DNA of 58,036 nucleotides from Oscillospiraceae bacterium (GTDB lineage Bacteria > Bacillota > Clostridia > Oscillospirales > Oscillospiraceae): the NCBI GenBank assembly GCA_045602885.1, contig JAZSCJ010000022.1, positions 1-58,036 of the forward strand. Reading direction: 5' to 3'. The translations under genes were made by a program, and so were the position numbers. A model generated the notes under the pieces. It saw nothing but the letters and a program-made list of their open reading frames with translations. It searched no databases and was not told the DNA's origin. This document shows, piece after piece, positions 2,187 to 51,754 of this stretch (position 1 is the first letter of the stretch; each line of letters starts with the position of its first letter).

Positions 2187-2319
2187 AAGCGTTCTCCTTT
2201 GCGTTGTGCTACCGATAGTATGTGCATCATACTACCATTGTACCATACAATTACGGATGCCGTAAATGCCGCGGTTTTGGGGCATACTATGCCTATCGAC
2301 CGAAAGGAGTTGTATTACT

Positions 2320-2754
2320 TTGATAGAAGCGGATACCATAAAACTGCTGCGCGAATGCGATGCCGGGATCAAGATGGGCGTGACCAGCATTGACGATGTT
2401 CTGGACCATGTGCACAGCGAAACCTTCCAGAATCTTTTGACCAAGTGCAAGAAAGAACATGAATCGTTACAGCTTGAGGTGCAAGGCCTTTTGCAGCAAT
2501 ATCAGGACGATGGGAAGGACCCCAATCCCATGGCCAAAAGTATGTCCTGGATGAAAACCAACCTCAAGCTGGGCATGGACGAATCGGATCAAACGGTTGC
2601 CGATCTCATGACCGACGGCTGCAACATGGGGGTCAAATCGCTCAACCGATACCTGAACCAGTATGCCGCAGCCAGCGAGGTGTCCAAGGATATCACCAAG
2701 CGGCTGATCCATTTGGAAGCGCAGCTTGCGGTGGATATTCGGCCCTTCCTATAA
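2320..2754 (+). CDS. Hypothetical small helical protein, about 144 aa
   Basis: In-frame TTG at 2320 lies 10 nt after AAGGAG (2304-2309). The track ORF starts further upstream at 2266. A terminator follows. No recognisable catalytic motif. Confidence 0.55.
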   Translation: MIEADTIKLLRECDAGIKMGVTSIDDVLDHVHSETFQNLLTKCKKEHESLQLEVQGLLQQYQDDGKDPNPMAKSMSWMKTNLKLGMDESDQTVADLMTDGCNMGVKSLNRYLNQYAAASEVSKDITKRLIHLEAQLAVDIRPFL

Positions 2755-2779: not shown

Positions 2780-2829
2780 AAGGCAGATCGGTCAAATCCC
2801 TTGTGGACAACCGATCTGCCTTAATTTTT
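2780..2829 (+). terminator. Rho-independent terminator after the small helical protein gene
   Basis: AAGGCAGATCGG, an 18-nt loop, CCGATCTGCCTT, then aattttt. Confidence 0.6.
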
Positions 2830-2845: not shown

Positions 2846-3415
2846 TTAGAGTACCAGCTTTTCTAAGCCCTCCCACGTTAGTTCAACGGCCTCCAGCTCA
2901 CGCCAGGAGGAAAACTTGCTCTCCAGAATGAGCCAGGTGATGTACCAATATACATACTCGATCTGCAGATGGCAGGGAATGATCTGCTCGATGATTTTGC
3001 TCATGGCTGCAAAGCCGTCGGGGATGCCGGGCACCTCGGGGAAGCGCACTTCCACGATATCAGGGCGGTCAGTCTCGCTGGCGATGGCATTCAATCCGCA
3101 CCCGGCCAGATTGTCGTTGATGGCGGCTATGGTAAAGCTGTCGCCGCCGATGCGCAGCAGGGCGGCCAGAGCGGCTTGACGGCGTGTCGTGCTGGTGGTT
3201 ACCGGTCGCAGGGAGAGCAGGGAGGCCACTTGATCCAGCCCCTCCTCCTGGGCCGTCAAAACCAGCATCTCCCGGCAAAGCCGATCCAACTGCTCCATGC
3301 AGTCGTCCAGCGCAGCGCCGATGCTGTCCAGCTCCTGTGCGTTGAATGTGCCTGCGTCCAAATTATATACGCCCAACGGGCGCAGAAACTCTTTCAGATA
3401 TTCGGCGCAGCTCAA
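2846..3415 (-). CDS. Baseplate/tail protein, XkdU-like (DUF2313-like)
   Basis: 189 aa, last gene after the baseplate J-like gene as in PBSX. ATGA overlap with the upstream gene at 3412-3415. Confidence 0.7.
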   Translation of the reverse strand: MSCAEYLKEFLRPLGVYNLDAGTFNAQELDSIGAALDDCMEQLDRLCREMLVLTAQEEGLDQVASLLSLRPVTTSTTRRQAALAALLRIGGDSFTIAAINDNLAGCGLNAIASETDRPDIVEVRFPEVPGIPDGFAAMSKIIEQIIPCHLQIEYVYWYITWLILESKFSSWRELEAVELTWEGLEKLVL

Positions 3416-4464
3416 AGGGTGTTCACCGCCAATTCACCCAAAACGGGAAGCTCGCCCTGCACGGGTGCAATGTCATGGGCTGGGGCAAGTACTTGATAAT
3501 TTTCCACGCCCTCAATGCCGAAAATCACGTGCCCCAGCTGGGCGCGCAAAAGCCCCCGGCTGAGCAGTCGGCCATCAAAATAACCGCGCAGTGCTTGTTC
3601 CACCGCGGCCGTCACCGTGGTCGGTTCATATCCGTCGGCCGCCGCGATGGCCACCGAAACCGTTACGGGTTCCGTTGTCGGCGCCAGCACGCCCACATCC
3701 ACCGCGATCTCCCGGCGTTGTTCAAAATAGTCCCTTATCTGCTCCAGCAATTCCTCGTCCGGGATGCCGCTGTGAGAGGCGACCACTACATCCACCGTGC
3801 CGATGCCGCGCTGGCGGGGCAGCACGGTGGCGGCGGCCACTTGTTCAAAGGACAGCGCACCCTGCTGATAGAACGCAGCATTGGCGCCGTTGGGCAAGCG
3901 CTTGTAGCTGTCCAGAATACGCTTACGCAAACTCTCGTCATCTTCGGCATCCACGCCGCCGGAAAAGGCATCGGGATTGGTGCACGCGGCCACGCCAATG
4001 GGTGCCACCGTCATGATGGTCACCGTGCCGGCGGGCACGTTACCCGCCGTGCCCGGCTCCCATGCCCGCGTGGGTACGTGGACCGAAAGAGTACCGGCAC
4101 GCAGCGTGCCTGCCTCCACCGTTTCAAAACGCACCATCCCGGCCGTCATGCAGATGGTTCCTGCCGGGATAGTCAGATCCTGCTCAGCGGCACGGTTCAC
4201 CGAAAAGCACAGTACGCCCTCGGCCTTTGTGGGGGCACGCCGCTGCAGGGCACGCATCTGAGCGTGCAAATCCAAATGTTCACCCTCGGCCGTGTGGGGA
4301 AAGCATTGGCGCCGGGTCCAGTCGGCCTGCAGCAACAGGGAGTGGATCTGGGCGGCCACCGCGTACAGCCGCAGTGCCAGATCACCGGCCTCTGCCGGTT
4401 CCACGCCACCGCGTGCGGCGAAACTGGCCAGCATCTCCTGGTAAATTTCTTCGATCGATTTCAT
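3412..4464 (-). CDS. Baseplate J-like protein (XkdT-like)
   Basis: 350 aa. The N-terminus MKSIEEIYQEMLASF...LALRLYAVAAQ is typical of the baseplate J/gp47 family, and the gene sits in the matching position. Confidence 0.85.
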   Translation of the reverse strand: MKSIEEIYQEMLASFAARGGVEPAEAGDLALRLYAVAAQIHSLLLQADWTRRQCFPHTAEGEHLDLHAQMRALQRRAPTKAEGVLCFSVNRAAEQDLTIPAGTICMTAGMVRFETVEAGTLRAGTLSVHVPTRAWEPGTAGNVPAGTVTIMTVAPIGVAACTNPDAFSGGVDAEDDESLRKRILDSYKRLPNGANAAFYQQGALSFEQVAAATVLPRQRGIGTVDVVVASHSGIPDEELLEQIRDYFEQRREIAVDVGVLAPTTEPVTVSVAIAAADGYEPTTVTAAVEQALRGYFDGRLLSRGLLRAQLGHVIFGIEGVENYQVLAPAHDIAPVQGELPVLGELAVNTL

Positions 4465-4467
4465 GGT

Positions 4468-4818
4468 TTATACCTCCACGGTCAGAGTTAGAGGCTCTCC
4501 CCTCCAAGTCAGAGATACGGTCAGATTACCTCGGTCATCTGCGGTCTGTTCCAGCGTTACCCCGGTGACCGACAGCTCCGACTCTTCGGCCAACGCTTCG
4601 GAAACATAGGCTCGGGCCAACGCCTCGCGCTGGCTGGGTTTGGAGCGAAACAGAAGATGCAGCCGGCTGCCAAACTTGGGCAAAAAAGGACAGCCGCCCC
4701 GTCGGGCGCTCAAACGCAACAGTATGCGCTGTAAAAGTTCCTCTTGAGCCGTGGCACGGCAAAAGCCACCCTTGCCGTCGGGTACATAGTCGCCATTGCG
4801 TAAAAGCAATTGACTCAT
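4468..4818 (-). CDS. Baseplate wedge protein, gp25/GPW-like (XkdS position)
   Basis: 116 aa. The GGCPFLPKFGSRL motif resembles the gp25-like fold signature, and the gene is syntenic. Confidence 0.65.
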   Translation of the reverse strand: MSQLLLRNGDYVPDGKGGFCRATAQEELLQRILLRLSARRGGCPFLPKFGSRLHLLFRSKPSQREALARAYVSEALAEESELSVTGVTLEQTADDRGNLTVSLTWRGEPLTLTVEV

Positions 4819-4819
4819 A

Positions 4820-5245
4820 TCAGCGCGTCATACCTCCTTCGTCATCCGGTTCGCCCAATATCGACTGTACGATCTGTCGAATGAGCTCGGTTAATTGTAA
4901 TCCGTTGATAATCAACGAACCTCGTAATTCCAGCCTGCCGTTTTGGGTCAGATGTATCTGCACTCTTTGGTCTGCGCTGGACAGGCGTACCTCACCCGGC
5001 TGCGGGGTGTCTTTCTGCCGCGCGCCAACGGTACAGGGCGACTCTCCATCCGCACCGGCCTTGAGCACCAGAACCTCCTGCCCCGGTGCAGGGGCCCATT
5101 GATATCCGCCGGGGCTGTACACCGAAACGCTTCGGCGCTCCCCGGACAGATAGACGCCGGCCGGATCACCGCTCAGCGTGACCGGCCCGGTTTCCACGGT
5201 ATTTTCACGCCGGGTCAGATCCCGGCGCTGTTGCGATAACCACAT
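4820..5245 (-). CDS. Baseplate spike/assembly protein V-like small OB-fold protein (XkdR position)
   Basis: 141 aa. GGYQWAPAPGQEVLVLKAG resembles the gpV/Mu gp45 N-terminal domain, and the gene is syntenic. Confidence 0.55.
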   Translation of the reverse strand: MWLSQQRRDLTRRENTVETGPVTLSGDPAGVYLSGERRSVSVYSPGGYQWAPAPGQEVLVLKAGADGESPCTVGARQKDTPQPGEVRLSSADQRVQIHLTQNGRLELRGSLIINGLQLTELIRQIVQSILGEPDDEGGMTR

Positions 5246-5255
5246 AATCTTCCTC

Positions 5256-6206
5256 CTAACCGACCGCTTCGGGCAGGGCCAGCAGCAAGGTGGTGTAAGC
5301 GCCGTCGGCTCGTTCCCCAGTCATGGCCTGTGCCACCCGATACAGCCCATTGCAGCCCCACCCGGTGCGCTTGACTTGCACCAGCTCTCCCGGAAAGGCA
5401 AACAACGCCGTGGGGAGTGTCACCTCCAACTGGTAACGATCCGCCCGGGATCGTTCCAGCTGATACTGCCCCTGATAACGCATGGCCTGATAACTGCTTC
5501 TGCCCGGCATAGTGTGCCAGCGGCGGCATTGGCCGCCTTGCGCGATAAAGTCGGCATCCTCCACCGATGCTACCGTCTGGCGTGCTTTGTCACGCACCAT
5601 AACGTGGGAAAGCACTCCGTAGCGTTTTTCTCTCCAACGCATAGCAACCACGGCTGCGGTGTCATCCAGCACGACGGCTGTGCCGTCCTGCCACGGCCCG
5701 ACAAGCAGCCGCCCCATCCGATCAAATCGAGGCACCGTTGCGCCCCAGTACCGGGCGAACTGGTAAACTGCCTGCCACTCGCTGCTGCCGTAAGCCACGG
5801 AAAACCCCTGGGCCGGCGGTGGGGGTGTGCCCACCGCCTCAATGCCGTAGGGGGTCACATGACGACGCAGAATATCTGCCCAGGTCGCCACACCGTAATC
5901 GACCGGCTCGGCTTCATTGTCCAGCAGCAGCGCCGCCATCCCCCGGCCGATCAATGTAACACGCCGTCCGTTGCTGTCTTCCTGAAGGGAAAACTCGTCT
6001 ACCACCCCGCTGAAAACCCGTTTCCCATCCTCCTCGGCCCAAAAGCGCACCGCCGCCGACAGCACGGCCAGCTCCTCCTGATCCCAGAGAAACTGGATCT
6101 GAAAGCTGTCGCAAGGGGAGGAGGTGCCATATTCAAAGCACCATTCCAATAGGGTCGGCAGCACATGTCGGCTGCCATCGTATGTCACAATGGTTGCTGT
6201 CATCAT
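5256..6206 (-). CDS. Baseplate hub protein, XkdQ / late control D-like
   Basis: 316 aa, between the LysM tail protein and the spike-like protein. ATGA overlap at 6203-6206. Confidence 0.7.
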   Translation of the reverse strand: MMTATIVTYDGSRHVLPTLLEWCFEYGTSSPCDSFQIQFLWDQEELAVLSAAVRFWAEEDGKRVFSGVVDEFSLQEDSNGRRVTLIGRGMAALLLDNEAEPVDYGVATWADILRRHVTPYGIEAVGTPPPPAQGFSVAYGSSEWQAVYQFARYWGATVPRFDRMGRLLVGPWQDGTAVVLDDTAAVVAMRWREKRYGVLSHVMVRDKARQTVASVEDADFIAQGGQCRRWHTMPGRSSYQAMRYQGQYQLERSRADRYQLEVTLPTALFAFPGELVQVKRTGWGCNGLYRVAQAMTGERADGAYTTLLLALPEAVG

Positions 6207-6781
6207 GCCACCCTCACCTGCTGTCCGGGGTAGATCCGATTGGGATTGGCGATCTGGGAATTCAGAGCGATCAGCGCGTCAAATTCCAGCCCATACCGTG
6301 CGGCGATGCCCCACAGCGATTCCCCCTTGACCACCGTGTGATACCGTTTTTCTTCTCCGCCCTGCGCCTCTGTCGCACCCTTGCCAGAGGTAATCCCGGT
6401 TGCGGAAGAAACCGGCTGGGTGGTGTGCCCGGTATAGTCCTCCCAGAACGTAAAAGTATAGCTGACATAGTCTTCTCGTGGCTCCTGCTTCAGAGCCAGG
6501 GACACAAAGTACGCGCTGGTCGTCTGCCATACCGGGTGGACCAGCAGGCCGGGTTCCTCATCGTAAAATACCGTGGCCAGCTTTTTGAAAGCATCGTATG
6601 CGCCGGGGCCGGAAAACTCGCCCTCGCCGCGCATGACGCGGCGGGTCATGCCAAGGTTCTGCAAATGATAGCGGCCAAAGGGCACTTTGTGCACAGCCAT
6701 CTTTCGTTCAAACTCAATGGAATACACTCTGGGATTGTGGGGCCAGGTGTAGTTTTTATAGCGCATGGGTGTCAGCTTCAT
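6203..6781 (-). CDS. LysM-domain tail protein (XkdP-like)
   Basis: 192 aa. C-terminal LysM motif HTVVKGESLWGIAARYGLEFDALIALNSQIANPNRIYPGQQVRV. Confidence 0.8.
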   Translation of the reverse strand: MKLTPMRYKNYTWPHNPRVYSIEFERKMAVHKVPFGRYHLQNLGMTRRVMRGEGEFSGPGAYDAFKKLATVFYDEEPGLLVHPVWQTTSAYFVSLALKQEPREDYVSYTFTFWEDYTGHTTQPVSSATGITSGKGATEAQGGEEKRYHTVVKGESLWGIAARYGLEFDALIALNSQIANPNRIYPGQQVRVA

Positions 6782-6799
6782 GTAACCCCTCCTTCCTGT

Positions 6800-7315
6800 T
6801 TAATACATGGAAAATCCCCCGTCATACCGACGGGCATCCCGGGCGAACAGTTCGTCCAGTCGGGCTGCGTTGGGCACAGCGGAAAGAGTGGGGGCGAGTT
6901 CGGCCGGGGTGGACATTAAATTGCCGTTTTGCTGCAAATTGGCGGCAGCCTGCGCCGCCGATACCGTCTGCCGATACAGTGTCGCCGCCCAGGAATGCAT
7001 CCCGGCACGGCTGAGCTGTTCCGGCTGTAAAAACAACGGGGAAGAAAGCGCTCCTTCTGATTGAAATGCCATGATTGACAACGGGTTTTTCTGTTCTGCC
7101 ATATCGATCTCCGGACGCATTTGCACCCCTTCGCGCTCGCCTGGATCGGCTTGCGCCGCTTGCCTTTCCGGCCTGTGGTACGCCACGGCGATGGGGCGAG
7201 TTTGCCCTGCGACCCGGGAGGCGGCGACGGAAACCGACGCCGCCTCATCGCCCATGGCGTTCTCCTCCGGTGGCACTTCCTGCTGTGCCAGCAGCCATTC
7301 CAAATAGTCGATCAT
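6800..7315 (-). CDS. Protein in the tape-measure position (171 aa); putative very short tape measure
   Basis: The assignment rests on position only: the gene lies immediately downstream of the chaperone frameshift pair (ATGA overlap at 7312-7315) and upstream of the LysM protein. The sequence is Ala/Gln-rich and probably helical. Confidence 0.4.
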   Translation of the reverse strand: MIDYLEWLLAQQEVPPEENAMGDEAASVSVAASRVAGQTRPIAVAYHRPERQAAQADPGEREGVQMRPEIDMAEQKNPLSIMAFQSEGALSSPLFLQPEQLSRAGMHSWAATLYRQTVSAAQAAANLQQNGNLMSTPAELAPTLSAVPNAARLDELFARDARRYDGGFSMY

Positions 7316-7949
7316 ACCGTTTCACCTCGCCGCAGCCGCTCAAACTTTGCCGTGTCAAACCCGGCGTTTTCGCCCCGGTCACTGACCAGGGTGCCGCACA
7401 CCGGGCAGCTGCTTGAGTGTGCCTGCTCCCGGCAGCTGGGGCACAGGGCGTTCAATGCCTGCTCGTCATCCAACAGCAAATTCAGCGCGCACCAAAGGTA
7501 ATCCCGGTCGGTCATCTGTTGGGCGCGTTCTTCGGTCGGAAGCGCGCCAAAGGCCCGGAGCACACGCCAGCGAAGGCGCGCTTGCGGCGTGTGCTCCAAG
7601 CTTTTTTTAGCGCATGCATCCGCTCCTGCTCGTTTTCGCAAGAAGCCTCCTCGCCCCGGTCCAGCGCTGCCCATTGCCGGGCCAGCACGGCAATACGGTC
7701 GGGGGTCAGCGCCTCCAGCACAGCCTGTCCGTTTTCAAAGACAGGCTTGCCGTCCCACTCCAATGCCCGGGCCAATAAACAAGCGTTGGAACACAACGCC
7801 TTTTCCCGGTCACCCTGGGTCAACGTTTCGGCCTCCCGACGGGCCTGCAATACCTCCAACGCGGTCAGAAGACGCAACTCCAGACCGTCCCCGTCGGGCA
7901 CCTTGACTCGTCTGGCTCCCGCCAGAATCGCCATAAGATCTTTCTGCAT
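7312..7949 (-). CDS. Tail assembly chaperone, long (GT-like) form made by -1 programmed frameshift
   Basis: ORF 7312-7674 is in the -1 frame relative to 7512-7949. The junction at cta-aaa-aaa-gct gives ...HALKK|SLEHTPQARL... Confidence 0.6.
7512..7949 (-). CDS. Tail assembly chaperone, short (G-like) form, XkdN position
   Basis: 145-aa ORF directly after the tube gene. It overlaps the -1 frame ORF 7312-7674. Confidence 0.7.
   Translation of the reverse strand: MQKDLMAILAGARRVKVPDGDGLELRLLTALEVLQARREAETLTQGDREKALCSNACLLARALEWDGKPVFENGQAVLEALTPDRIAVLARQWAALDRGEEASCENEQERMHALKKAWSTRRKRAFAGVCSGPLARFRPKNAPNR
7602..7608 (-). promoter_or_regulatory. -1 programmed ribosomal frameshift slippery heptamer A_AAA_AAA
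   Basis: Seven consecutive T on the plus strand (A7 on the coding strand), in X_XXY_YYZ register with the zero frame (ctA AAA AAA gct). Confidence 0.7.
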
Positions 7950-7951
7950 CC

Positions 7952-8341
7952 TTACACCCCGGTTTCAATGCGCCGTGTGGCCACCAGCGTGATCTTCTCG
8001 GCTACCGTGCCGCCCAGCGCGGCGCTTTCGGCGATGGAATTCCATTGACAGCCGGAATAGATGATCTTGCGATCCGGCTTGCAGATGACCAGAGAAAAAT
8101 CGGTCATGGAATAAAAATCGATGCCGTCTTTGAGCGCCTCGTCGGTGGCGTACAAACGAGTCAGCTCGATGACGTGGCGAACCTGACTGGCCGAGGTGGC
8201 CACCGGCTCACTTTCGCCGAAGGCCTCTACCGTCTGACTGGATCGAGTGGTCTTGACCGCGTAGCTTTGCACCACCGCCACCTTTTTGTTGTCCACCATC
8301 AGATAGATATCACTGCTGGTGGGAATGCCTCCAATGCTCAT
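7952..8341 (-). CDS. Tail tube protein (XkdM-like)
   Basis: 129 aa, immediately downstream of the sheath gene, with a typical size and beta-rich sequence. Confidence 0.8.
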   Translation of the reverse strand: MSIGGIPTSSDIYLMVDNKKVAVVQSYAVKTTRSSQTVEAFGESEPVATSASQVRHVIELTRLYATDEALKDGIDFYSMTDFSLVICKPDRKIIYSGCQWNSIAESAALGGTVAEKITLVATRRIETGV

Positions 8342-8353
8342 ACCATGACCTCC

Positions 8354-9406
8354 TTATACCGTGATGTGGGCCGACAGCCAGATCTGGTTCAAGCCGTGGG
8401 CCACAGTGAAGGAAAACTCCACCAGACACACAGTGGGGTTGTCCTGCATGGCGTTGACAGCCACACCGTCATAACCGGTAATGATCTCACGGGCCAGCTT
8501 GTTCTCCAGCTCCAGTACTACCTGGGAACGAATGGCGCCGCGGCTTTGTGGGGTGTTTTTGGCGCGCTGGAACTTGGCACGCAGCGCATTGCGCAGCGAG
8601 GGGATCACGTCATCCACCACCAGAATGGTGCTCAGCTCGCGCCATGTGCTGTCGGCCACGCCGCCCACCGTGGTACAGGTGGTCACTGCGCGCACCACCG
8701 AAATGATGCCGGCCACACTCTCCAACGCAGTCACACCGCCTCGCACCAGCGCGTCGATCTCGGTGTCGCTGTATCGCTTGGCCAGACCGCTCAGCCCTTT
8801 CAACGCAGCGCCGCCCAGCGGCATGGCCGGGTCACGCTCACCGGCAATGGCACCGGCAAGGGCGGCCGCGGCACGTACGCCGGACAGCACGTCGCCGCTT
8901 TCGCTGAGCACCTCGGGCGCAACCAGCACCATGCGGTTGCAGTTGATCTGCGCGGCGCGCGCGATCAGTTCGTCAACGCTTTCCCCGGCACCGCCGGCCA
9001 CCACGCCGATGCGTTCACGCCGGGCCTGCGATGCCGCGATCACACTCTCGCGCAGCATCTGCTGCACCGTCACATCGGTGCTGTCGCAGATCACGATGGA
9101 AAGATCCTCCTGCGCCTCCAGCGCGGCGAAGGCGTCGGCATAGCCGTCCTCGTCTGCCACCGGGGCCACAACAACACCGGCTGCGCCGTTGAGAAACAGA
9201 AGCCGCACCAGCTCGGTCAGCTCGGAATCGGCACCGAATTGTTCCGCAGCTTTATTGTAATCGCTTATCACACATACGCTTTGCGTCATCTCTGCATTGG
9301 ATAACGCCGCCAGTCCCACCCACTTTGCGCCGGTTGCGCCGCTGATCAAAGAGGATGCCTCATAGACCGAGTACACGCCCGGTCGTTCATGGGTTGTTAC
9401 ATTCAT
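8354..9406 (-). CDS. Contractile tail sheath protein (XkdK-like)
   Basis: 350 aa. The N-terminal ERPGVY motif (MNVTTHERPGVYSVYE) is characteristic of sheath proteins. Confidence 0.88.
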   Translation of the reverse strand: MNVTTHERPGVYSVYEASSLISGATGAKWVGLAALSNAEMTQSVCVISDYNKAAEQFGADSELTELVRLLFLNGAAGVVVAPVADEDGYADAFAALEAQEDLSIVICDSTDVTVQQMLRESVIAASQARRERIGVVAGGAGESVDELIARAAQINCNRMVLVAPEVLSESGDVLSGVRAAAALAGAIAGERDPAMPLGGAALKGLSGLAKRYSDTEIDALVRGGVTALESVAGIISVVRAVTTCTTVGGVADSTWRELSTILVVDDVIPSLRNALRAKFQRAKNTPQSRGAIRSQVVLELENKLAREIITGYDGVAVNAMQDNPTVCLVEFSFTVAHGLNQIWLSAHITV

Positions 9407-9900
9407 ACTCTCACTCCCTTGAGCTCAAAGTCCAAAAATTGTCCGCCCTCGTCTGCCACCGCATAGAGAAAGCATTTGCATACCGCCTCCACCGGGCAGC
9501 AAAACAGCCCGCTTTTTTCGTCGTAGCGCACCTCGCCTTGGCAGAAGGACTGCACCGTCAATCCCACAGGGCCGCCCTGCTGCAGTGCGTTGGCCAGCGT
9601 GTCAAAGATAGTTTGACAGGCGGCTGCCCCATCGGTGCGGCTTGCGTACAGATCCAGCGCAAAGGTCACGGTCAGCTGCTTTCCGTACAGCTCCTCCCAG
9701 CGACCGGTGGCGCTGTTATAACGCTCGCCCAGATAATCCTGAAAGCCCGAAGGGCCGCCCTCGCACCGGCGTACCGATACCGCCGCCACCGCCTGTTGAG
9801 GTTTCACCCTGCCGCTATCCGGCCATGCGGTCAGCGCCGAGATACCCTGTCGGCACAAAAAGTCCGTCATACATTCCCGTATGGTATCCAGTCCGTTCAT
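9403..9900 (-). CDS. Tail completion / head-tail joining protein (XkdJ position)
   Basis: The internal ATG at 9900 (MNGLDTIREC...) forms an ATGA overlap with the upstream stop. The track ORF extends to 10005, but that extension overlaps the upstream gene. Confidence 0.5.
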   Translation of the reverse strand: MNGLDTIRECMTDFLCRQGISALTAWPDSGRVKPQQAVAAVSVRRCEGGPSGFQDYLGERYNSATGRWEELYGKQLTVTFALDLYASRTDGAAACQTIFDTLANALQQGGPVGLTVQSFCQGEVRYDEKSGLFCCPVEAVCKCFLYAVADEGGQFLDFELKGVRV

Positions 9901-10235
9901 ACCTGCGCCTCCTCCATGGGCTCCAGCATGGCCCACCAGTGGTTTGCCTGCTGACCCACATAGACCAGGTGGGCGGTACGCACCCGGTACCGCCCGCCCT
10001 TCCATGATATATATCCCTTGTCGCCCAACGCATTTAAATCACCGCCGGGATGACCCAGATAGAGAAAACGCTTCTGCCAGGCCAGCCCCAACGGCGTGGG
10101 CACGCGCTGCTCTTCCCGGCGGTCGGGCACAGCCTGCAGAAAGGCCATGCACAGCGTGTCTTCCTGCGCGCCCTCGCCGTGCAGATGTACCATCTGTCCG
10201 TACCGCGACAGCAGCGTGGGAAATGTTTTTGTCAT
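9897..10235 (-). CDS. Head-tail joining protein (XkdI position)
   Basis: Start MTKTFPTLLSRYG at 10235 with an ATGA overlap with the upstream gene. About 112 aa. Confidence 0.5.
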   Translation of the reverse strand: MTKTFPTLLSRYGQMVHLHGEGAQEDTLCMAFLQAVPDRREEQRVPTPLGLAWQKRFLYLGHPGGDLNALGDKGYISWKGGRYRVRTAHLVYVGQQANHWWAMLEPMEEAQV

Positions 10236-10594
10236 CCCATCACCTTCTGAAAGAAGAATCGACCGTCCTCCACCCAGGGTGCCAGCAGCTGTTCGGCCTG
10301 TCGGCGCAGCGCCTGACTTCGCTGCGCTGCGGTCTCGCCGCTGTGGCGAATGGTAACGTCCCCTGCGGTAAAGGACTCCACCTGCTCCTGCCATCCGGCC
10401 GCGGCAAGAAAGGCCAGCACCTGACAGGCCGCCGCAAGCAGAAAGGCTTCCCCGCAGTCGGCAGGGGACACGCCCTGCTTCAGCCGTCCGGCCAGTTCGG
10501 TCTCCACGGCGGCGCAGATGGGAAACAGCGTTTCCCGGTCACCTTCCTCGCCACGCAGCTGCATCACCCGGGCCAAAATCTCCTCGGTCATCAA
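10232..10594 (-). CDS. Head-tail connector protein, gp6-like (XkdH position)
   Basis: 120 aa, helical, directly after the capsid gene. ATGA overlap at 10591-10594. Confidence 0.55.
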   Translation of the reverse strand: MMTEEILARVMQLRGEEGDRETLFPICAAVETELAGRLKQGVSPADCGEAFLLAAACQVLAFLAAAGWQEQVESFTAGDVTIRHSGETAAQRSQALRRQAEQLLAPWVEDGRFFFQKVMG

Positions 10595-11619
10595 ATGCTC
10601 AGCACCTTGGCTGCCTCGGTAAAGACCTTGGCAAAGCCGGAGATGCTGGTAATGGCGGCGCGCTCCAGCTGACGGTCGATCAGCTTGTCGTATTCCACCA
10701 TCACGTCAGAACCCTTGACCATTTCCAACGCATAGTTGCGGTCCAGACCGATGATCTTACCGTCGGGCATAGCGCCGGTGCGCAGTAGCTTGGCACCCAG
10801 AGGAGTGTCCAGTTTGCCGGTGCCCTGGAAGTTCAGACCGGTCAGCGGATTCTGGAACTCGGGCAGCTTGAGCAGCTCCACCATGGTATTGCCGCCCACC
10901 AGCATGGTGTTGAGCTCATAGGGGTCAAACTGGGCCCAGAAGTCCACCAGATCGTCATAGGTCAGCTTGCCGCCGGTGCCGCCAATGGGGGCGGTGCCAA
11001 CAGAAAAAGAGGGGGCGGCGTTGTGGTTGCCGTCGCCGTTGAGCAGCACGTCAATGGCGTCCTCCAGGTGCATGCGGCTGATGTGCGCACCGATCTGGCG
11101 CAGCGTCACGGAAAACAGATCCAGCTTCTGATAACGGATGGCTTCGTAAGAGGCCACCAGCATGCGGCCACGCTTGTGCAGCTTGACCAGATTCTCCTGT
11201 GTCTTAATGGTAGTCTGGGGAATGGCAGCGCCCTCGCTGACGGGGCACAGCTGCTTTTCCTGCTCGGGCACCGAGGCGATGGAGCGGTAGTCCATGCCGT
11301 CAAAACGGGTCACCGTCGCTGTGATGGAGGGCAGAATGTCCTTCTCCTCCATGCCCTGACGCACCGTACGGGCAATGTACTCGGGGAACAGTACGGCGGA
11401 GTCAGCAGTGGAGAAGAACTTCTCCACCACGTCGCTGCCCGCGCCCTTGACCTTAATGTCAAAGCGCTTGAGCTGACGCTGATAGGCGTCCAGACCCTCC
11501 AGCGCAGTGCCCTTGTAGTTTTCCGAGGGGTCGCACTTTTCCAGTACCTGCGTAAAGGAACGGCCTGCCTCGCTGTACATACCCTTTTCCAGCTTCAGAT
11601 TTTCAAACTGATAAGCCAT
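10591..11619 (-). CDS. Major capsid protein (HK97-fold type)
   Basis: 342 aa, positioned after the protease and decoration genes. RBS GGAGGAAAA lies upstream of the ATG at 11619. Confidence 0.82.
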   Translation of the reverse strand: MAYQFENLKLEKGMYSEAGRSFTQVLEKCDPSENYKGTALEGLDAYQRQLKRFDIKVKGAGSDVVEKFFSTADSAVLFPEYIARTVRQGMEEKDILPSITATVTRFDGMDYRSIASVPEQEKQLCPVSEGAAIPQTTIKTQENLVKLHKRGRMLVASYEAIRYQKLDLFSVTLRQIGAHISRMHLEDAIDVLLNGDGNHNAAPSFSVGTAPIGGTGGKLTYDDLVDFWAQFDPYELNTMLVGGNTMVELLKLPEFQNPLTGLNFQGTGKLDTPLGAKLLRTGAMPDGKIIGLDRNYALEMVKGSDVMVEYDKLIDRQLERAAITSISGFAKVFTEAAKVLSI

Positions 11620-11637
11620 GGTTCATTTTCCTCCTTC

Positions 11638-11979
11638 TTACAGTCGCACCACTGCGGTTGCAGTCGTGGTGTCGATGGCAACCACCAGATAGGTGCGGCC
11701 ATCCTCGTCGGCCATCACGCCGCCGTTGCCGTCAGCGGTCAGCTTGACCCAGCCGCAGCCGGGTGCCGCGCCGGTGTATGCCACCTGAGTCAAACCGGCA
11801 AACTGAATGCCGGCAAAGCCCTGACGGGCGTTGACCGCCACGCCGATGAACTCATCACCGCTGCCGCAGGGGGCGACTGCGCCGGCCTCATCCAGCTTGA
11901 CTACGCATCCCTTTTCCACCGGTGCAGTCACCGGAAAGGTGGCCACCATCTCACCGATGCCTTCAAACGAAACTTTCAT
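11638..11979 (-). CDS. Small head protein, DUF2190-like (decoration/cement candidate)
   Basis: 113 aa, Gly/Ala/Val-rich beta protein between the protease and capsid genes. Confidence 0.55.
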   Translation of the reverse strand: MKVSFEGIGEMVATFPVTAPVEKGCVVKLDEAGAVAPCGSGDEFIGVAVNARQGFAGIQFAGLTQVAYTGAAPGCGWVKLTADGNGGVMADEDGRTYLVVAIDTTTATAVVRL

Positions 11980-12009
11980 GCTCCATTCCTCCTCTTGTCA
12001 TATATTCGG

Positions 12010-12894
12010 TCACACCAAAAAGGCGTTGTCCCGCTCATTGTGTTCCGGGCGCTCCTGTGCGCCCTGGGGCAGCTGGGTGTGCAGCGGATATCGTGCTCCG
12101 GCCTGGGCGCCAAAGGCGTCCTTGAGATGAAGCAGCTCCTCTTCGTCCAGCTTGTCGGCAATGCCGCGCAGCACCTTGTGTTCCAACTCGGGCTGAGCCA
12201 GTGCGCCTAAACGGGCCACCTCGCCACGCAGGGCGCTCAAATACCGGCGGCCCATGGCGGCCTCCTTCTCCAACTGAATGCGCTCGGGGTCCATGCCCTT
12301 GTGAAGCACACCGGCCCGCTTCTGGGCAGGCACCGCCACAAAGGACCACTCGTAGGCATCGGTGGCGTGCTCCAGCTCGGCCCAGCACAATTTGCCGTCA
12401 TAGCGCTGTCCCTTCCCGTGGTTGCACACGTCCAAATCACCGCCGCAAATGGAGCACGTAGCCTGCTCCACCGCGCACCCCACCGACACTTCCTTCTTGA
12501 TACCGCCCTCAATCTCGGCGATCAGGTCCTCATTGGAGGGAGTGCGCAGCATGTAAGCGTAACCCTTTAGATAGCAATAGGGATCACCGGCCTGTGTTAC
12601 CATGGCCGCATCCTCTACCAACTCGGTGCGGTAGATGCGTGCCGCCTGTCCCCGGGCCGACCACTGGTGGTCAAACATGCCGCTCTTACCCACAAACAGA
12701 GTGGCCAGCTCCTCCAGAGTTTTACGGGAAAAGCGCTCCCATTCTCGATCCACCTCGTTGTCGCACAGACGCACCGTAAAGGTATACACCTCTTCGGCCG
12801 TCAGCTGCTTGCGACTGAGTGCGTTGATTTGCGCCAAGTCCTCGGCGCTGACCTGTGCCGCGCACATGGCGTCGGCCTGCTTTGCGATGTTCAT
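12010..12894 (-). CDS. Prohead protease/scaffold, XkdF-like
   Basis: 294 aa directly after the portal gene (ATGA overlap at 12891-12894), with a helical C-terminal scaffold-like tail. Confidence 0.6.
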   Translation of the reverse strand: MNIAKQADAMCAAQVSAEDLAQINALSRKQLTAEEVYTFTVRLCDNEVDREWERFSRKTLEELATLFVGKSGMFDHQWSARGQAARIYRTELVEDAAMVTQAGDPYCYLKGYAYMLRTPSNEDLIAEIEGGIKKEVSVGCAVEQATCSICGGDLDVCNHGKGQRYDGKLCWAELEHATDAYEWSFVAVPAQKRAGVLHKGMDPERIQLEKEAAMGRRYLSALRGEVARLGALAQPELEHKVLRGIADKLDEEELLHLKDAFGAQAGARYPLHTQLPQGAQERPEHNERDNAFLV

Positions 12895-14039
12895 TCCGAT
12901 TCCTCCAGTTTTGCAGCCTGAGTGCGGTAAAGCTGCGCCCGCGCCGCCTCCACCTCATCCTGCAGATTGATGTCCTGCCAACAGATTTCCACAGCGTCGT
13001 CATACCCGTGCAGCCGCAGCCACAGCGAACAAATGCGCTCCAGTGTGGGGGTCAGACTGCGCCGAATGGCGCCCAGCTCGCTGGTCATAATGTCGGCCTG
13101 CTGGGTGCTCATGCGCTCGGTGGACGACCAGGAAAGTCCCAAAAGGAATGGGGGGATGCCCGTCTTGGCCACCAGCTGCTCCAAAATCTGCCGTACCGGC
13201 ACCTCGCTGTCCAAAATCTGGTTGTCGGCGCCGATCACCTTGATGTCCACGTCGCCCACCGCCACGAAATCTCGCACACTTCCGTTTTTGGTGCTCTGCA
13301 TGGCGCTGCTCCACTCCCGGGCGATCTCCTGACAGCGCTCCCGAGCCAGCGAGCGTTCCATGCCATCCCCATCCGGCTTGTACACCACGGCAAAGCGCAG
13401 ATTGCCCATGCGCTCCCAGTTCATGCCGATGGTCTGATAGATCTTCAGTAAGATCTCGGACAAAAAGGGCATGGAGCGAAGCATACTCACGCCATAGGGG
13501 GCGCTGGCCTCCGGCTGAAAAGGAGTGAACAAAAGTAGCTCCTGCCAGGGCAGCGGCTCGATCTGTCCCCCCACGCCACGGGTACAAAGACGGAAATCCA
13601 GCGGATGCTCCCCCTCCTGGATCTCAATGTCATCGGGATTGCCGCACAGCACGGCGGCGATCTCCCGACCCGTCCGATCCAGTACGATCTCGCCAATGCC
13701 CCGGCCGCAGGTCAGCATGCTGTCCAGATACCCGTCCAGAAAGCTCTGCAATCCGAATTGATTGCGCCCCACGGCTACGGTACGTACAAAGCGATCCATA
13801 CCGGCCTGCGCCCGATGTTCCCGGCATTGCACGGTAAATCCGCCGCACAGACGGATCAGCTTGAGAATGGCCGCGTCCACAATGGGAATGGCCTCCCGAA
13901 TGGTGCGGTACAACTGCGTCTGGCCGTGGTTGAGCGGCACATACCCGTTGAGTGCGCCAAACGGATGCCGGTCACAGCGGCGCAGCTGTACCGCTGTTTC
14001 CGCGCCTGCGCTCTCTTTTTTTCGTTCCCAGAAACCCAT
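12891..14039 (-). CDS. Portal protein
   Basis: Start MGFWERKK at 14039, preceded by caGGAGGGaaatc just after the terL stop. About 382 aa, following terL. Confidence 0.82.
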   Translation of the reverse strand: MGFWERKKESAGAETAVQLRRCDRHPFGALNGYVPLNHGQTQLYRTIREAIPIVDAAILKLIRLCGGFTVQCREHRAQAGMDRFVRTVAVGRNQFGLQSFLDGYLDSMLTCGRGIGEIVLDRTGREIAAVLCGNPDDIEIQEGEHPLDFRLCTRGVGGQIEPLPWQELLLFTPFQPEASAPYGVSMLRSMPFLSEILLKIYQTIGMNWERMGNLRFAVVYKPDGDGMERSLARERCQEIAREWSSAMQSTKNGSVRDFVAVGDVDIKVIGADNQILDSEVPVRQILEQLVAKTGIPPFLLGLSWSSTERMSTQQADIMTSELGAIRRSLTPTLERICSLWLRLHGYDDAVEICWQDINLQDEVEAARAQLYRTQAAKLEESE

Positions 14040-14052
14040 GATTTCCCTCCTG

Positions 14053-15309
14053 TCAAAATGCGCCCCGTTCCACACAAAGGGCGCTCATGCCGGTGTGCGG
14101 CTGCTGTGCAATCGTGGTGGCAAAATAGCGAATGTCATCCATGGCGTGGTCATGCTCTTTGCGTACCCGGTCTTTTCCACCGTCATCCTCCCAGCGATAC
14201 AGGGCAAACTCCCGAATGGCCGACAGACAATCCGGGCAAATCACCAGTCGCCCCTGCCGCAGCAGATCGGCCGTCAGACGAATGCCGCCCAGCACCTCGT
14301 TGCGGGCCTTGACCACCGGCCAGCCTGCACGGCGCAGCACTTCAATAAAGCTGGCCGCCGACGGATCGACCACAACACATTGGATGCTGCGCCCTCCGGC
14401 CAGTTGCTCCAGCGCCTGGGCGTACTCACCGTCGGTTTTCTGCCGACCCTCGGCCCGGGAATCGTAGTAATACTCCTTGACCCGATACCAAACGCCCTGC
14501 TGCAATCCCCACAACCCAAAGGAGGCCGGATTCACCGTGCCGTAATCGCAGGAGATGGCCCAGCGCTCAAAGGGGCCGGGCGGTGCCGGCTTGATGTAGC
14601 TCTCGTCGAAGAAGTCGTAGACCAGCCCCTCGGCGGCCACCCATTCCCCCAGCACAAACCGACGATAAAAAGTACCCCGAAAGACTCGCTCATACCGCTT
14701 GCGCACCGCCGGGCTCAACCCGGGATTGTCCTGCATGGTGAAATGCAGATACAGTGCGTTGCGCTGCTCGGCCTTGCAGATCCACTCCTTGTAAAACCAG
14801 TGCTCCGGCCCTTCGGGGTTGCAGGAAAACCAGAATCGGCTGCCCAGCACCGAGCAGCGTGCCATGGCCTGCTCCACAAAGGAGCGCGGCATGAGCGCCA
14901 CCTCATCCAGCAGCACACCGGCCAGCGTCAAACCCTGAATGTGGGCCGCGCTGCCCTCATCCCGTCCGCCAAACAGATAAAAGGTATTCTTCCTTCTTCC
15001 TGCGCGCACCGTTACGCAGCCACGGGATACCTTTTCCTCTACGGAAAACCCCAGTGACCGCAACTGCTCCAACGCCTGTCCCAACAGATTGCGCCGCACC
15101 GCTGCCGCCGTTTTTCCACACAGCGCGAACTGCTCGTTTTGAAACCGGGCCATACTCCACAGAAAAAAGGATATGGTCATGGCCAGCGTCTTGCCGCTTC
15201 GCACTGCGCCGTCGCAGATGATGGCCTCCCGATCCCGGTGGGGGGAATTGCCGCGCCACCAGGACAGGACCTGTTTCTGCTTTTGGGAAAAACTCTGCAC
15301 GCTCAGCAT
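14053..15309 (-). CDS. Terminase large subunit (PBSX/XtmB-like)
   Basis: 418 aa. Walker A-like DGAVRSGKT, a LLDE Walker B and a C-terminal nuclease region. Confidence 0.9.
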   Translation of the reverse strand: MLSVQSFSQKQKQVLSWWRGNSPHRDREAIICDGAVRSGKTLAMTISFFLWSMARFQNEQFALCGKTAAAVRRNLLGQALEQLRSLGFSVEEKVSRGCVTVRAGRRKNTFYLFGGRDEGSAAHIQGLTLAGVLLDEVALMPRSFVEQAMARCSVLGSRFWFSCNPEGPEHWFYKEWICKAEQRNALYLHFTMQDNPGLSPAVRKRYERVFRGTFYRRFVLGEWVAAEGLVYDFFDESYIKPAPPGPFERWAISCDYGTVNPASFGLWGLQQGVWYRVKEYYYDSRAEGRQKTDGEYAQALEQLAGGRSIQCVVVDPSAASFIEVLRRAGWPVVKARNEVLGGIRLTADLLRQGRLVICPDCLSAIREFALYRWEDDGGKDRVRKEHDHAMDDIRYFATTIAQQPHTGMSALCVERGAF

Positions 15310-15623
15310 GCCGCCCCATCTTCCTCTGCACCCAATGCGTTGAGAAATGCCGTGCAGCTGCCATCATCCTCTTCTTTGATCAGATGATAAATGCGCTCCA
15401 GCAGCGCTGCCCGGTCGGCCAGCTTGATCTCAATGGTTCCGTTGGCGCTGCGCTTGAACTCGGTCAATGCCGTCAGATCCAACTCCTCCAACCGGGCGAT
15501 TTCCTCCTCGGTCAAGTAGGCCAGGCGAATCGCATCGTTGACCTTTCCGCAGGCCAGTCGTTCCAGCCGCCGCAAAATCGCTTCCGCCTTTTTTCGGTTG
15601 CGTTCCAAAGTTCCACCTCCCAT
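15303..15623 (-). CDS. Terminase small subunit
   Basis: Small helical protein overlapping the terL start by 7 nt. The start is uncertain: ATG at 15623, or TTG at 15608 lying 7 nt after GGAGG. Confidence 0.55.
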   Translation of the reverse strand: MGGGTLERNRKKAEAILRRLERLACGKVNDAIRLAYLTEEEIARLEELDLTALTEFKRSANGTIEIKLADRAALLERIYHLIKEEDDGSCTAFLNALGAEEDGAAC

Positions 15624-15674
15624 ACCTGCATCCAATCGGGCGAAAATGTTGCACCTTGCGATACACACAACAAG

Positions 15675-15715
15675 AAAAATAAAAAACCACGGTCTGCCGT
15701 TTGACAGACCGTGGT
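15675..15715 (-). terminator. Rho-independent terminator of nhaC
   Basis: ACCACGGTCTG, 8-nt loop, CAGACCGTGGT, followed on the minus strand by ttttttattttt. Confidence 0.75.
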
Positions 15716-15732
15716 CGATGAGGTATGGATAT

Positions 15733-36574: not shown

Positions 36575-37786
36575 TTATGCCTGGGCGGTCAGCAGCGCGT
36601 GCAGATGGGGGAAACAGCGCAGGGTGCGCTCCAGCGTGCCGGTGACCTGTGCCAGTGTGATGCCGTAATTGGTAAAGGGAATGTTTTGGTCCAGGGCACA
36701 GCGCATGCGGTACTGGATGTCGCGGTCGGTGTTCATGCAGCCGCCGCAATGGATGACCATGGCGTACCGGGACAGATCCTCCGGGAATTCGGTGCCGCTG
36801 CAGGTTTCAAACTGCAGCGTGCAACCGCAGTAGGCCTGCAGCAGCCGGGGGATCTTGACCGTGCCGATGTCGTTGCATTGGCGATGATGGGTGCAGCCCT
36901 CTGCCATAAGAATGATGTCGCCGTCACGCAGATTTTTGGCGGTGGCAATTCCCGCCACGGCAGTCTCCAAAAATCCCTTGTACTGGGCCATGACAATGGA
37001 AAAGGTGGTCAACGGCACCGATTGGGGGGTCACCTTGCTTACCACCGCCAGCGCCTGACTGTCGGTCACCACAAGGGCGGGTGGCTGGCGCAGAGCCTGC
37101 AGCGTGGCTTCCAGCTCGGTCTCCTTGGTGACCAGTGCGATGCCCTGCGCGTCCAAAATGTCACGAATGGTTTGCTGCTGGGGCAAAATGAGCCGGCCCT
37201 TGGGCGCCGATTCGTCAATGGGGCACACCAGCACGACGGTGTCCTGCGGCCGGAGTAGCTGGCCCACGATGCTCCGGTCGGGATCTCCCTTGGGCGCAAG
37301 CTGTGCGATGCGCTCTTTCAAAGCGGTAACACCCTCGCCGGTCAGCGCGCTGACATACAGGGCGCGGTCGGTTTGGTCCGGCCGATTGTGCTGCAGCTCG
37401 CATTTGTTGTAGGCGATCAGATGTGGGATCTGCTTTTGTGCGAAAATGTCCAGAAGTTGTCGGTCAAATTCATTGAGCCCGGCCTGCGCATCGACTACTA
37501 AAACGGCCAGGTCGGTCTTGTTGAGGATTTGCTTTGTTTTCAATACGCGCAGCTCACCCAGCTGGCCCACATCGTCAAAGCCCGGCGTGTCGATGATGAC
37601 CACCGGCCCCAGCGGGAGCAGCTCCATGGCCTTGCTGACCGGGTCGGTGGTGGTGCCCTTCACGTCGGATACCACCGCCAGTGCCTGCCCGGTCACAGCG
37701 TTGACCAGACTGGACTTTCCGGCGTTTCGACAGCCGAAAAAGCCGATGTGCAGCCGCTGGGAGGACGGAGTTTGATTCAAACTCAT
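36575..37786 (-). CDS. hydF: HydF-family GTPase ([FeFe]-hydrogenase maturase scaffold family)
   Basis: G1 GCRNAGKSSLVNA, G3 DTPGFDD, G4 YNKCE. C-terminal cluster motif EGCTHHRQC ... HCGGC. ATG at 37786 after GGGGAAGTG. Confidence 0.85.
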   Translation of the reverse strand: MSLNQTPSSQRLHIGFFGCRNAGKSSLVNAVTGQALAVVSDVKGTTTDPVSKAMELLPLGPVVIIDTPGFDDVGQLGELRVLKTKQILNKTDLAVLVVDAQAGLNEFDRQLLDIFAQKQIPHLIAYNKCELQHNRPDQTDRALYVSALTGEGVTALKERIAQLAPKGDPDRSIVGQLLRPQDTVVLVCPIDESAPKGRLILPQQQTIRDILDAQGIALVTKETELEATLQALRQPPALVVTDSQALAVVSKVTPQSVPLTTFSIVMAQYKGFLETAVAGIATAKNLRDGDIILMAEGCTHHRQCNDIGTVKIPRLLQAYCGCTLQFETCSGTEFPEDLSRYAMVIHCGGCMNTDRDIQYRMRCALDQNIPFTNYGITLAQVTGTLERTLRCFPHLHALLTAQA

Positions 37787-37803
37787 GTTGTGTTCACTTC
37801 CCC

Positions 37804-38928: not shown

Positions 38929-38929
38929 G

Positions 38930-45321: not shown

Positions 45322-45360
45322 AAAAAATACCGCCGCATCCCGAAAAAAGGATACAGCGGT
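45322..45360 (-). terminator. Intra-operon intrinsic terminator / attenuator directly upstream of the permease start codon
   Basis: The minus strand reads ACCGCTGTATCC-ttttttcg-GGATGCGGCGGT-atttttt-ATG: a 12-bp stem including 2 G-U pairs, then a U-run. Confidence 0.55.
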
Positions 45361-51744: not shown

Positions 51745-51754
51745 AAGAGGTGGG

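Follow-up and report, generated by a model that had tools for sequence, protein, structure and literature searches.

Gene transfer agents (GTAs) are well characterised mainly in Alphaproteobacteria, and to our knowledge only PBSX and the newly reported FpGTA have been described from Gram-positive bacteria. PBSX packages 13.4-kb host DNA, in a type of head that holds about 13 kb, yet acts as a tailocin, and FpGTA is a podovirus-like two-operon element characterised in Faecalibacterium (PMC12946183). The same faecal virus-like-particle nanopore study found GTA-like packaging most prominent in Ruminococcaceae and Oscillospiraceae and reported packaging peaks without an assigned locus, at about 5.9 kb in Onthomonas and at 4.6 kb in Ruminococcus callidus (PMC12946183). 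Oscillospiraceae GTAs were also suspected in a mouse study, which found no cluster by its criteria; the 12.7-kb cluster of that study was considered here and set aside, being a capsid-only, holin-bearing candidate satellite of another family. Here we describe a locus on contig JAZSCJ010000022.1 of an Oscillospiraceae bacterium (GCA_045602885.1), analysed over 58,036 nt (the window). On the minus strand, between positions 2846 and 15673, it carries one tight, co-oriented cluster of 12.8 kb with a complete phage head and contractile-tail gene set. This cluster is probably a long-kept, vertically inherited, phage-derived particle module ("viriform") of one gut Oscillospiraceae clade that is controlled by its host. 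Domestication of the locus has good support. Packaging of random host DNA, in fragments shorter than the locus, and its transfer would follow from a small terminase subunit (TerS) without a DNA-binding domain, a siphophage-related large subunit (TerL) and analogy to known systems. The retention of near-identical, intact clusters under purifying selection in hundreds of species makes the locus a strong candidate for an undescribed GTA-like particle. Literature on GTAs or phage-like particles that names the genera and families concerned was searched, and no description of the locus was found.

Gene families were assigned by Pfam, PHROGs and NCBIfam profiles together with structure prediction, and starts were refined from ribosome-binding sites. 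The cluster comprises 19 intact genes and one −1 frameshift product (Table 1). It encodes all components of a DNA-filled head and of the contractile tail, with its Mu-type baseplate, that is attached to it; nothing for replication, integration or immunity is encoded. A preliminary description of the window had placed a head and contractile-tail cluster here, which is borne out by ORF calls and profiles on the minus strand; the co-oriented intact gene set was also recognised there, with a count of 18 that has to be corrected. The eight four-base start/stop overlaps given there are present, six as ATGA and two as TTGA rather than all as ATGA, and the terS start at 15668 is replaced by the TTG at 15608. 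The nhaC terminator reported next to the cluster start was seen at 15685–15716. At the other end, the terminator given at 2780–2829 corresponds to a hairpin; its T-run lies on the plus strand, so that the convergent ORF is terminated better than the cluster.

The remaining 45 kb of the window hold host genes only, with host-type Pfam domains or none. No integrase, repressor, replication, fibre, holin or endolysin gene was detected with Pfam among the genes of the 58 kb, no tRNA adjoins the cluster, and flanking direct repeats do not rise above chance, the longest shared word having 9 nt compared to 8–10 nt in shuffled sequences. The preliminary description had found none of these features either. 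For fibre and lysis genes its statement holds for the window and not for the family, in which basal members differ (see below).

By its defining features the locus is not PBSX, RcGTA, FpGTA, a tailocin or a satellite, and it works most like PBSX and GTA elements. As in PBSX, TerL belongs to NCBIfam family TIGR01547, the prohead protease has a fold of the XkdF class, the contractile tail bears a LysM hub, the element is chromosomal and does not replicate, and the structural genes run from terS to an XkdU-class baseplate gene. This PBSX-like order, claimed before, stands with the present assignments. A long tape measure like that of PBSX (more than 1000 aa, for a tail of about 200 nm) is absent, the protein in this position having 171 aa in the window. 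The tape measure XkdO of PBSX has about 1300 aa. Further, the window lacks in its 58 kb the cis-encoded Xre/Xpf regulators, the XkdV fibre and the xhlAB/xlyA lysis cassette, its TerS has about 100 aa and no DNA-binding domain, and the locus is conserved across a bacterial family, whereas PBSX is found in a few Bacillus species.

FpGTA comes from the same bacterial order and habitat. It is likewise a chromosomal structural element without replication or lysogeny genes, its TerS is reported to have no DNA-binding domain, and lysis and receptor-binding functions lie apart from its head genes (PMC12946183). FpGTA is split over two operons of 10.5 and 5.5 kb, its capsids measure about 40 nm and show no tail, for which its authors suggest a podovirus-like form, and the packaged DNA is 8.4–8.9 kb long (PMC12946183); in this it differs from the single operon of the window with its sheath, tube, chaperone frameshift and Mu-type baseplate; the two (FpGTA capsid RCH50849.1, portal RCH50851.1) are set apart by description only. 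RcGTA, also compared by description only, resembles the locus as a head-tail cluster of about 13–15 kb with vertical inheritance, purifying selection, a TerS without specific DNA-binding domain, and regulators and lysis genes encoded elsewhere (established knowledge, partly PMC12946183). In contrast to the window with its sheath domains, the RcGTA tail is non-contractile; RcGTA has head spikes and fibres at other loci and is controlled by GafA and CckA-CtrA, whereas the host of the present locus is a Gram-positive anaerobe. The minimal simple-baseplate set of sheath (350 aa here), tube, chaperone, hub and wedge is shared with R-type tailocins such as pyocin R2 and diffocin. Those have no terminase, portal, protease or capsid, which in the window are present and constrained. 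The locus differs from phage-inducible chromosomal islands (PICI), capsid-forming ones included, in having neither integrase nor replication or primase genes nor regulators, and a full tail of its own, and from an intact temperate prophage in having no integrase, repressor, replication or lysis modules and no att repeats. Of the general traits of a GTA (viriform) it shows chromosomal structural genes without replication, integration or immunity functions, together with long-term vertical inheritance and purifying selection within its family. Packaging of essentially random host DNA is hinted at indirectly by the TerS without DNA-binding domain and by virome contigs with host flanks.

To place the locus, its relatives were collected. 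Sheath homologues form at least 2964 clusters at 90% identity, and the top 120 all have 340–357 aa. At least 247 species carry a relative in a scan of one genome per GTDB species; the best 80 of these 247 all bear Oscillospiraceae-type names and include Flavonifractor, Lawsonibacter, Pseudoflavonifractor, Intestinimonas, Flintibacter, Colidextribacter and Muriventricola. In every sufficiently long locus the genes from terS to gp48 are all present in identical order and at near-equal spacing, and about 68 full loci from different species are syntenic and intact. Split genes were seen only twice, in bpJ of L008 and terL of L039, with 69–82 loci inspected per gene. Locus size is uniform at 12.4–14 kb. 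IMG/VR holds 211 relatives; among the best 80 of them are 35 full-length entries, most labelled "proviruses", with borders that lie only tens of bases from the cluster ends, so that prophage callers recover this 13-kb unit and no more. At none of the loci examined, these provirus calls included, is the cluster flanked by lysogeny or replication genes. Among cultured phages clear relatives exist for TerL only; portal, sheath and capsid gave no BLAST-level match to cultured phage records and matched only unannotated human faecal contigs.

The estimation of dN/dS (ratio of nonsynonymous to synonymous substitution rates) by the Nei–Gojobori method, for 18 genes in 45 congeneric pairs, revealed purifying selection on all genes measured. 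Medians range from 0.027 (tube) to 0.254 (second connector), with a maximum of 0.50 in any pair; the capsid (0.044) is among the two lowest values, and the baseplate genes (0.12–0.18) show no sign of diversifying selection. In 28 loci the upstream host flank is the same, glgB and a Peptidase_S11 D-Ala-D-Ala carboxypeptidase. The pairwise identities of this carboxypeptidase and of six cluster proteins are closely correlated (Mantel r 0.915; none of 2000 permutations reached this value), and the co-divergence extends down to about 60% identity. Neighbour joining of six concatenated cluster proteins places all loci with the glgB/carboxypeptidase flank within one clade. Since vertical descent predicts this pattern, the flank-sharing clade argues for long inheritance with the host. 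Codon usage is host-like as well (relative synonymous codon usage, RSCU, r 0.96 between cluster and host genes; GC 60.8% vs 58.8%).

These results bear on the reading of the locus as a functionless defective prophage remnant in which decay has merely not yet begun. The window without lysogeny, replication and lysis genes would suit it, and Ca. Improbicoccus, with an orphan capsid gene from the same superfamily, is an example of how such genes can persist as debris. All 19 genes are, however, intact in about 68 species-level genomes with dN/dS of 0.03–0.25 throughout, slippery site and promoter motif have both been retained, and the co-divergence with a host gene reaches identities at which neutral remnants do not last. 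Intactness, dN/dS and co-divergence therefore exclude decay, and a remnant is hardly credible. The preliminary description had proposed a particle locus kept by selection and had suggested comparing synteny, dN/dS, GC content and codon usage with relatives and flanking genes; the proposal is supported on each of these points.

Somewhat more credit, but still little, can be given to a selfish mobile mini-element, satellite-like or an integrase-less minimal "phage", that packages its own approximately 13 kb and spreads horizontally with host recombination or a helper supplying the missing functions. The uniform size, matching the capacity of PBSX-type heads (PMC12946183), is in accordance with it, and so are flanks that differ between clades and in the window and related head modules on virome-labelled contigs. 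Those virome contigs, however, bear host flanks (DHFR, ThyA, NrdD, SecY and others), and no integrase, replication gene or att repeats were found. We consider such an element unlikely because TerS is truncated and has lost its DNA-recognition domain, an integrase is missing, codon usage is host-like, and the flank-sharing loci fall within a single clade and co-diverge with the flank gene.

In the packaging module, the Pfam match of TerS to Terminase_2 is below the cut-off (E 0.0019) and covers only profile positions 58–129 of 141. Alignment reveals that the protein has no counterpart of the approximately 60-residue N-terminal helix-turn-helix (HTH) found in the TerS of 177–191 aa of head-only relatives; this DNA-binding part is absent family-wide. 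TerL scores 173 bits against TIGR01547 (PBSX family; cut-off 105); its identity to the TerL of many siphophages of lactic acid bacteria, clostridia and staphylococci, which are headful packagers, is about 49%. The 294-aa protease gave no Pfam, NCBIfam or PDB sequence match, and a Foldseek search of PDB with its AlphaFold2 (AF2) model (predicted local distance difference test, pLDDT, 80) likewise gave nothing. The model matches, however, predicted viral prohead serine proteases in BFVD (best match "Prohead serine protease", E 1.6e-19; an entry named XkdF, E 1.9e-6), so that the earlier label "XkdF-like protease" holds at the level of the fold. The third connector matches phrog_25177.

Table 1. 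Features of the cluster and its borders (window coordinates).
Feature	Position	Strand	Basis and remarks
Conserved promoter/operator-like motif TTGTTGTGTGTATCGCAAGGTGCAACATTTTCGC	15640..15673	minus	Upstream of terS; position weight matrix
terS, small terminase subunit, ~101 aa	15303..15608	minus	TTG start after GGAGGTG; Terminase_2
terL, large terminase subunit, PBSX family	14053..15309	minus	TIGR01547; Terminase_6N
Portal protein	12891..14039	minus	phrog_30703, E 2.7e-164; start by ribosome-binding site
Prohead serine protease with C-terminal coiled-coil (scaffold-like) tail, 294 aa	12010..12894	minus	AF2 model
Small head (virion structural) protein, 113 aa	11638..11979	minus	phrog_4588, E 1.5e-23
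Major capsid protein, HK97 fold family	10591..11619	minus	Phage_capsid_4, E 1.3e-15; phrog_3922, E 1.4e-115
Three connector/head-tail joining genes	10232-10594, 9897-10235, 9403-9900	minus	Position and conservation in all loci; starts of second (10235) and third (9900) refined by ribosome-binding sites
Tail sheath, 350 aa	8354..9406	minus	Phage_sheath_1 and Phage_sheath_1C
Tail tube, 129 aa	7952..8341	minus	phrog_27038, E 4.4e-57
Tail assembly chaperone pair	G-like 7512-7949; −1 frame to 7312	minus	Slippery heptamer
171-aa protein in tape-measure position (mini tape measure candidate)	6800..7315	minus	ATGA overlaps stop of chaperone frameshift product
LysM baseplate hub (Mu gp43/XkdP-like)	6203..6781	minus	LysM, E 1.3e-14; DNA_circ_N, E 2.4e-5
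Baseplate hub (P2 gpD/Mu gp44 class)	5256..6206	minus	phrog_177, E 1.5e-32
Probable central spike, 141 aa	4820..5245	minus	phrog_25991; mainly position
gp25-like baseplate wedge	4468..4818	minus	Weak GPW_gp25/GP46; phrog_43
Baseplate J-like wedge	3412..4464	minus	Baseplate_J, E 2.1e-53; phrog_6
Mu gp48/P2 gpI-like wedge, last cluster gene in window	2846..3415	minus	Phage_Mu_Gp48, E 6e-7, sub-cut-off; phrog_521
Hairpin, 13-bp stem, bidirectional terminator candidate	2780..2822		Between cluster and convergent 162-aa ORF; sequence read

Directly upstream of terS a conserved motif occurs across genera (genome loci, L003–L082) at fixed spacing to the ribosome-binding site, with the family consensus A/T tract .. 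T.GGTG.ACG.AAACGT.CAACTTTT followed by 24–25 nt to the GAGG of that site. With a position weight matrix built from 60 loci, a single site in the 58 kb scores 10 bits or more, at 32 bits, and each of 71 loci (2.3 Mb in all) has exactly one site, on the strand of the cluster in every case and nowhere else. Accordingly, neither the window nor the 2.3 Mb holds further sites that might mark missing modules. Exact-pattern scans were set aside, since patterns of 14–19 fixed bases match only 6–17 of the 71 true sites and are swamped by chance hits. An RNA hairpin or terminator was rejected: no Watson–Crick covariation exists at the paired positions and many sites keep only 3–5 of 8 pairs, so that the element is a DNA motif, and an Rfam search returned tRNAs only. 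A scan upstream of terS found no sigma-70 promoter, and the spacing does not fit a sigma-54 site. The weak sigma-A-like or missing promoter of the preliminary description has to be revised, as its TTGTTG/AACATT hexamers sit inside the cross-genus motif, which does not look sigma-A-like. Part of the motif (TGCAACTTTT) bears some resemblance to an ECF-like (extracytoplasmic function) −35 element. A dedicated sigma factor or late activator, encoded outside the locus, may recognise the motif. The ORF at 51704–52045, a 113-aa protein with sigma-70 region 4 only, was tried as regulator and dropped, having no homologue in any related locus and hence no link to the cluster. In some loci the motif is partly palindromic (GTTGCACG-NAAA-CGTGCAAC); in the head-only cluster L168 terS is preceded by a related GTTGCAT-N6-ATGCAAC box, and in L165 by TGCAATTTTT.

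In the tail module, the slippery heptamer A AAA AAA of the chaperone pair at 7602–7608 is in the correct register for a −1 shift by sequence reading, in agreement with the intact frameshift signal described before. A heptamer in X XXY YYZ register lies within the chaperone overlap in 65 of 73 loci, where this A7 site is kept, and the frames are fused in seven more (L023, L037, L054, L066, L075, L077 and L082; region of about 11.3–12.2 kb), which is either real variation or a homopolymer-length error at the A7 tract. The 171-aa protein that follows has no Pfam or PHROG match. In 70 of 72 loci the equivalent gene encodes 156–289 aa (median 192); the protein is conserved only at about 12 N-terminal (MTDYLE.LL) and about 20 C-terminal residues (lDRaFrRDsRRYDGGF.LY), the middle being variable and rich in A, G, E, R and P. 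If this protein is the tape measure, as its position suggests, the tail would be very short. The baseplate set consists of six Mu-like genes. For the probable spike weak profile matches to Pvc8, a Vgr protein and P2 gpV were obtained (E 0.06–0.7), and PDB sequence searches with the protease, spike and TerS profiles gave nothing significant.

Such a tail leads to the question whether the particle is a PBSX-type killer, that is, a headed tailocin selected for tail-mediated killing in which packaged DNA is an undelivered by-product. Gene order and TerL family are those of PBSX, which itself acts as a tailocin with 13.4-kb host DNA in its heads (PMC12946183), and a contractile tail with LysM hub is present, with sheath and tube strongly constrained. 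On the other hand, capsid, portal and terminase are constrained like the tail, a finding that irrelevant heads would not readily account for, a fibre or receptor-binding gene is missing from most members, the baseplate dN/dS shows none of the diversifying selection of bacteriocin specificity determinants, and the very short protein in the tape-measure position argues against a long penetrating tail. Killing as the selected function thus appears rather improbable, though better placed than the mobile element. Between gene transfer and PBSX-like killing we lean towards a DNA-related function because the constraint on the head equals or exceeds that on the tail, no diversifying receptor-binding gene is present and the tail is probably very short.

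For the host-controlled, vertically inherited particle module the following course can be proposed. A trans-acting factor, either an alternative sigma factor or a late activator, would fire the element upstream of terS, and the 12.8-kb operon would be transcribed as a single, translationally coupled unit. Protease/scaffold, capsid and portal would form proheads, into which TerS without DNA-binding domain and the PBSX-family TerL would package cell DNA by a headful mechanism with little sequence preference. The −1 frameshift chaperone and the very short protein in the tape-measure position would assemble a short sheath/tube tail on the LysM hub. Release would depend on lysis functions, which basal lineages encode in cis (holin) and the lineage of the window presumably at another site. 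The particles may then deliver host DNA to relatives, as a GTA, or kill in a PBSX-like manner while carrying host DNA.

Several points weigh against this picture. Particles, packaged DNA and transfer are predicted from the genes of the family, and the element could package itself if the capsid holds 13 kb or more. Within the 58 kb there is no lysis or receptor-binding gene and no Xre/Xpf-type regulator gene. TerS is a weak assignment from a sub-threshold Pfam match and position, and the tape-measure role of the 171-aa protein is suggested by position and conserved termini. The co-divergence test uses a host gene that is physically linked to the cluster, and dN/dS comes from a simple estimator applied to non-independent pairs. 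Flanks differ between clades and in the window, which indicates some relocation or independent insertion. The evidence for vertical inheritance comes from the flank-sharing clade; the lineage of the window itself is sparsely sampled. A metagenome scan yielded sheaths of 66–78% identity only; the closest (71–78% identical) are on contigs below 2.5 kb, those of 77–78% on human-gut contigs of 1–2 kb, and longer contigs (sheath 61–66% identical) carry none of its flank genes; rnr or nhaC was on none of the metagenome contigs with window-like sheaths. NhaC was rejected as an anchor for the site, its homologues of 88% identity occupying unrelated neighbourhoods (L163 and L164, both entirely different from the window). 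In L163, nhaC lies beside a small HTH_3/Peptidase_M78 pair and short ORFs resembling a mobile-element remnant.

Basal lineages carry additional genes after gp48. A co-oriented CBM_5_12 protein of 152–158 aa was found in eight genome loci and a Phage_holin_4_1 holin in ten, six loci carrying both; two more metagenome loci have the holin. The loci with extra genes are L031:16480-17396, L007, L047, L049, L058, L071, L006, L011, L059, L063, L037, L054, L178 and L184. On the tree, the CBM/holin loci occupy an unbroken basal grade adjacent to the window; one member of this grade, L041, has neither gene. The species-rich Flavonifractor and Lawsonibacter clades and the window also have neither. The CBM_5_12 protein is a candidate receptor binder, and the simplest reading would be an ancestral tail-end with receptor-binding and lysis functions that was later lost or moved.

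Beyond these loci, capsid relatives number 1335 at the 50%-identity cluster level; a sample of 20 included no Faecalibacterium name. Several of the sampled relatives belong to head-only clusters, in which terL, portal, protease (where present) and capsid are homologous (38–61% identical), the HTH of TerS is intact, sheath, tube, chaperone and tape-measure-position genes are absent, and a few small genes are found. They sit between host genes in lower-GC gut Clostridia without an integrase. Examples are the chromosomal clusters L168 and L169 with host flanks and no integrase, and those of Ruminococcus champanellensis and R. callidus (L171–L173) beside rnpA-yidC-jag-trmE-gidA, the R. callidus capsid being 40% identical to that of the window. 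Several head-only clusters deposited as "Bacteriophage sp." are fragments of bacterial chromosomes, as illustrated by L002 (MT835508) with NrdD, RnfC, ApbE and SecY. In L165 (MT835952) the capsid is followed by two small ORFs and then the LysM hub, with no sheath or tube. An orthologous position of head-only clusters and the Lawsonibacter clade was rejected, the adjacent carboxypeptidases being only 23–25% identical. In the 1.0-Mb genome of Ca. Improbicoccus pseudotrichonymphae (AP027924, L167) a lone capsid gene of 43% identity lies among unrelated genes and shows what a true remnant looks like; about 7 kb away an unrelated 575-aa sheath and a T4 gp19-like tube were noted.

From these relatives a wider reading can be put forward tentatively, which we hold to be possible and less likely than the viriform of a single clade. 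Domesticated capsid loci of gut Clostridia (Oscillospiraceae, Ruminococcus and others) would belong to one large superfamily that has gone unrecognised, with the present locus as its contractile-tailed member, and the superfamily would be the source of the GTA-like short-fragment packaging in these taxa. The superfamily would show a graded reduction of the tail, from sheath and tube with a mini tape measure through a capsid nearly joined to the LysM hub to head-only clusters, and a progressive export of receptor-binding, lysis and regulatory genes from the operon.

The host genes of the window include RNase R, NhaC, VanW, RACo, an SLH protein, Rex, ABC transporters and a two-component system, further HydF, a NifH/NifDK-like set, AsnRS, MATE pumps and tRNAs. 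Convergent to the cluster, a 162-aa ORF (2266–2754, plus strand) lies in a stretch of lower GC content (about 51%); it has no Pfam or PHROG match and no homologue in any related locus. Beside tRNA-Tyr and tRNA-Thr, at 51233–52045 on the plus strand, three small overlapping ORFs include a zinc-ribbon-like protein, and no homologue of the ORFs of this region occurs near any related cluster. A hydrogenase-maturation/nitrogenase-like cluster unrelated to the phage block extends over 36575–45705 (minus strand) and contains HydF, a periplasmic-binding-like protein, two nitrogenase-component-1-like proteins, a NifH-like ATPase, a radical-SAM protein, an ABC ATPase fused to a TM1266-like domain and a separate TM1266-like regulator.

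Virus-like-particle sequencing indicates that Oscillospiraceae and Ruminococcaceae encapsidate much chromosomal DNA, and the locus is a concrete, family-wide candidate source; the packaging peak in Onthomonas, at about 5.9 kb, hints at a connection without establishing one. With the promoter motif it offers a regulatory handle, together with targets for knock-out in culturable strains, carriers including Flavonifractor plautii ATCC 29863, Pseudoflavonifractor capillosus ATCC 29799, Intestinimonas massiliensis and Lawsonibacter species. The truncated TerS and the tiny protein in the tape-measure position are of structural interest for packaging specificity and the setting of tail length. If the wider superfamily reading is true, the locus would parallel the evolution of RcGTA in Gram-positive bacteria, and its contractile tail might be the shortest known. 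If active, the locus would explain the recurrent 13-kb "provirus" predictions in these genomes and would provide abundant anaerobes of the human gut with a major route for exchanging genes, or for killing within a species.

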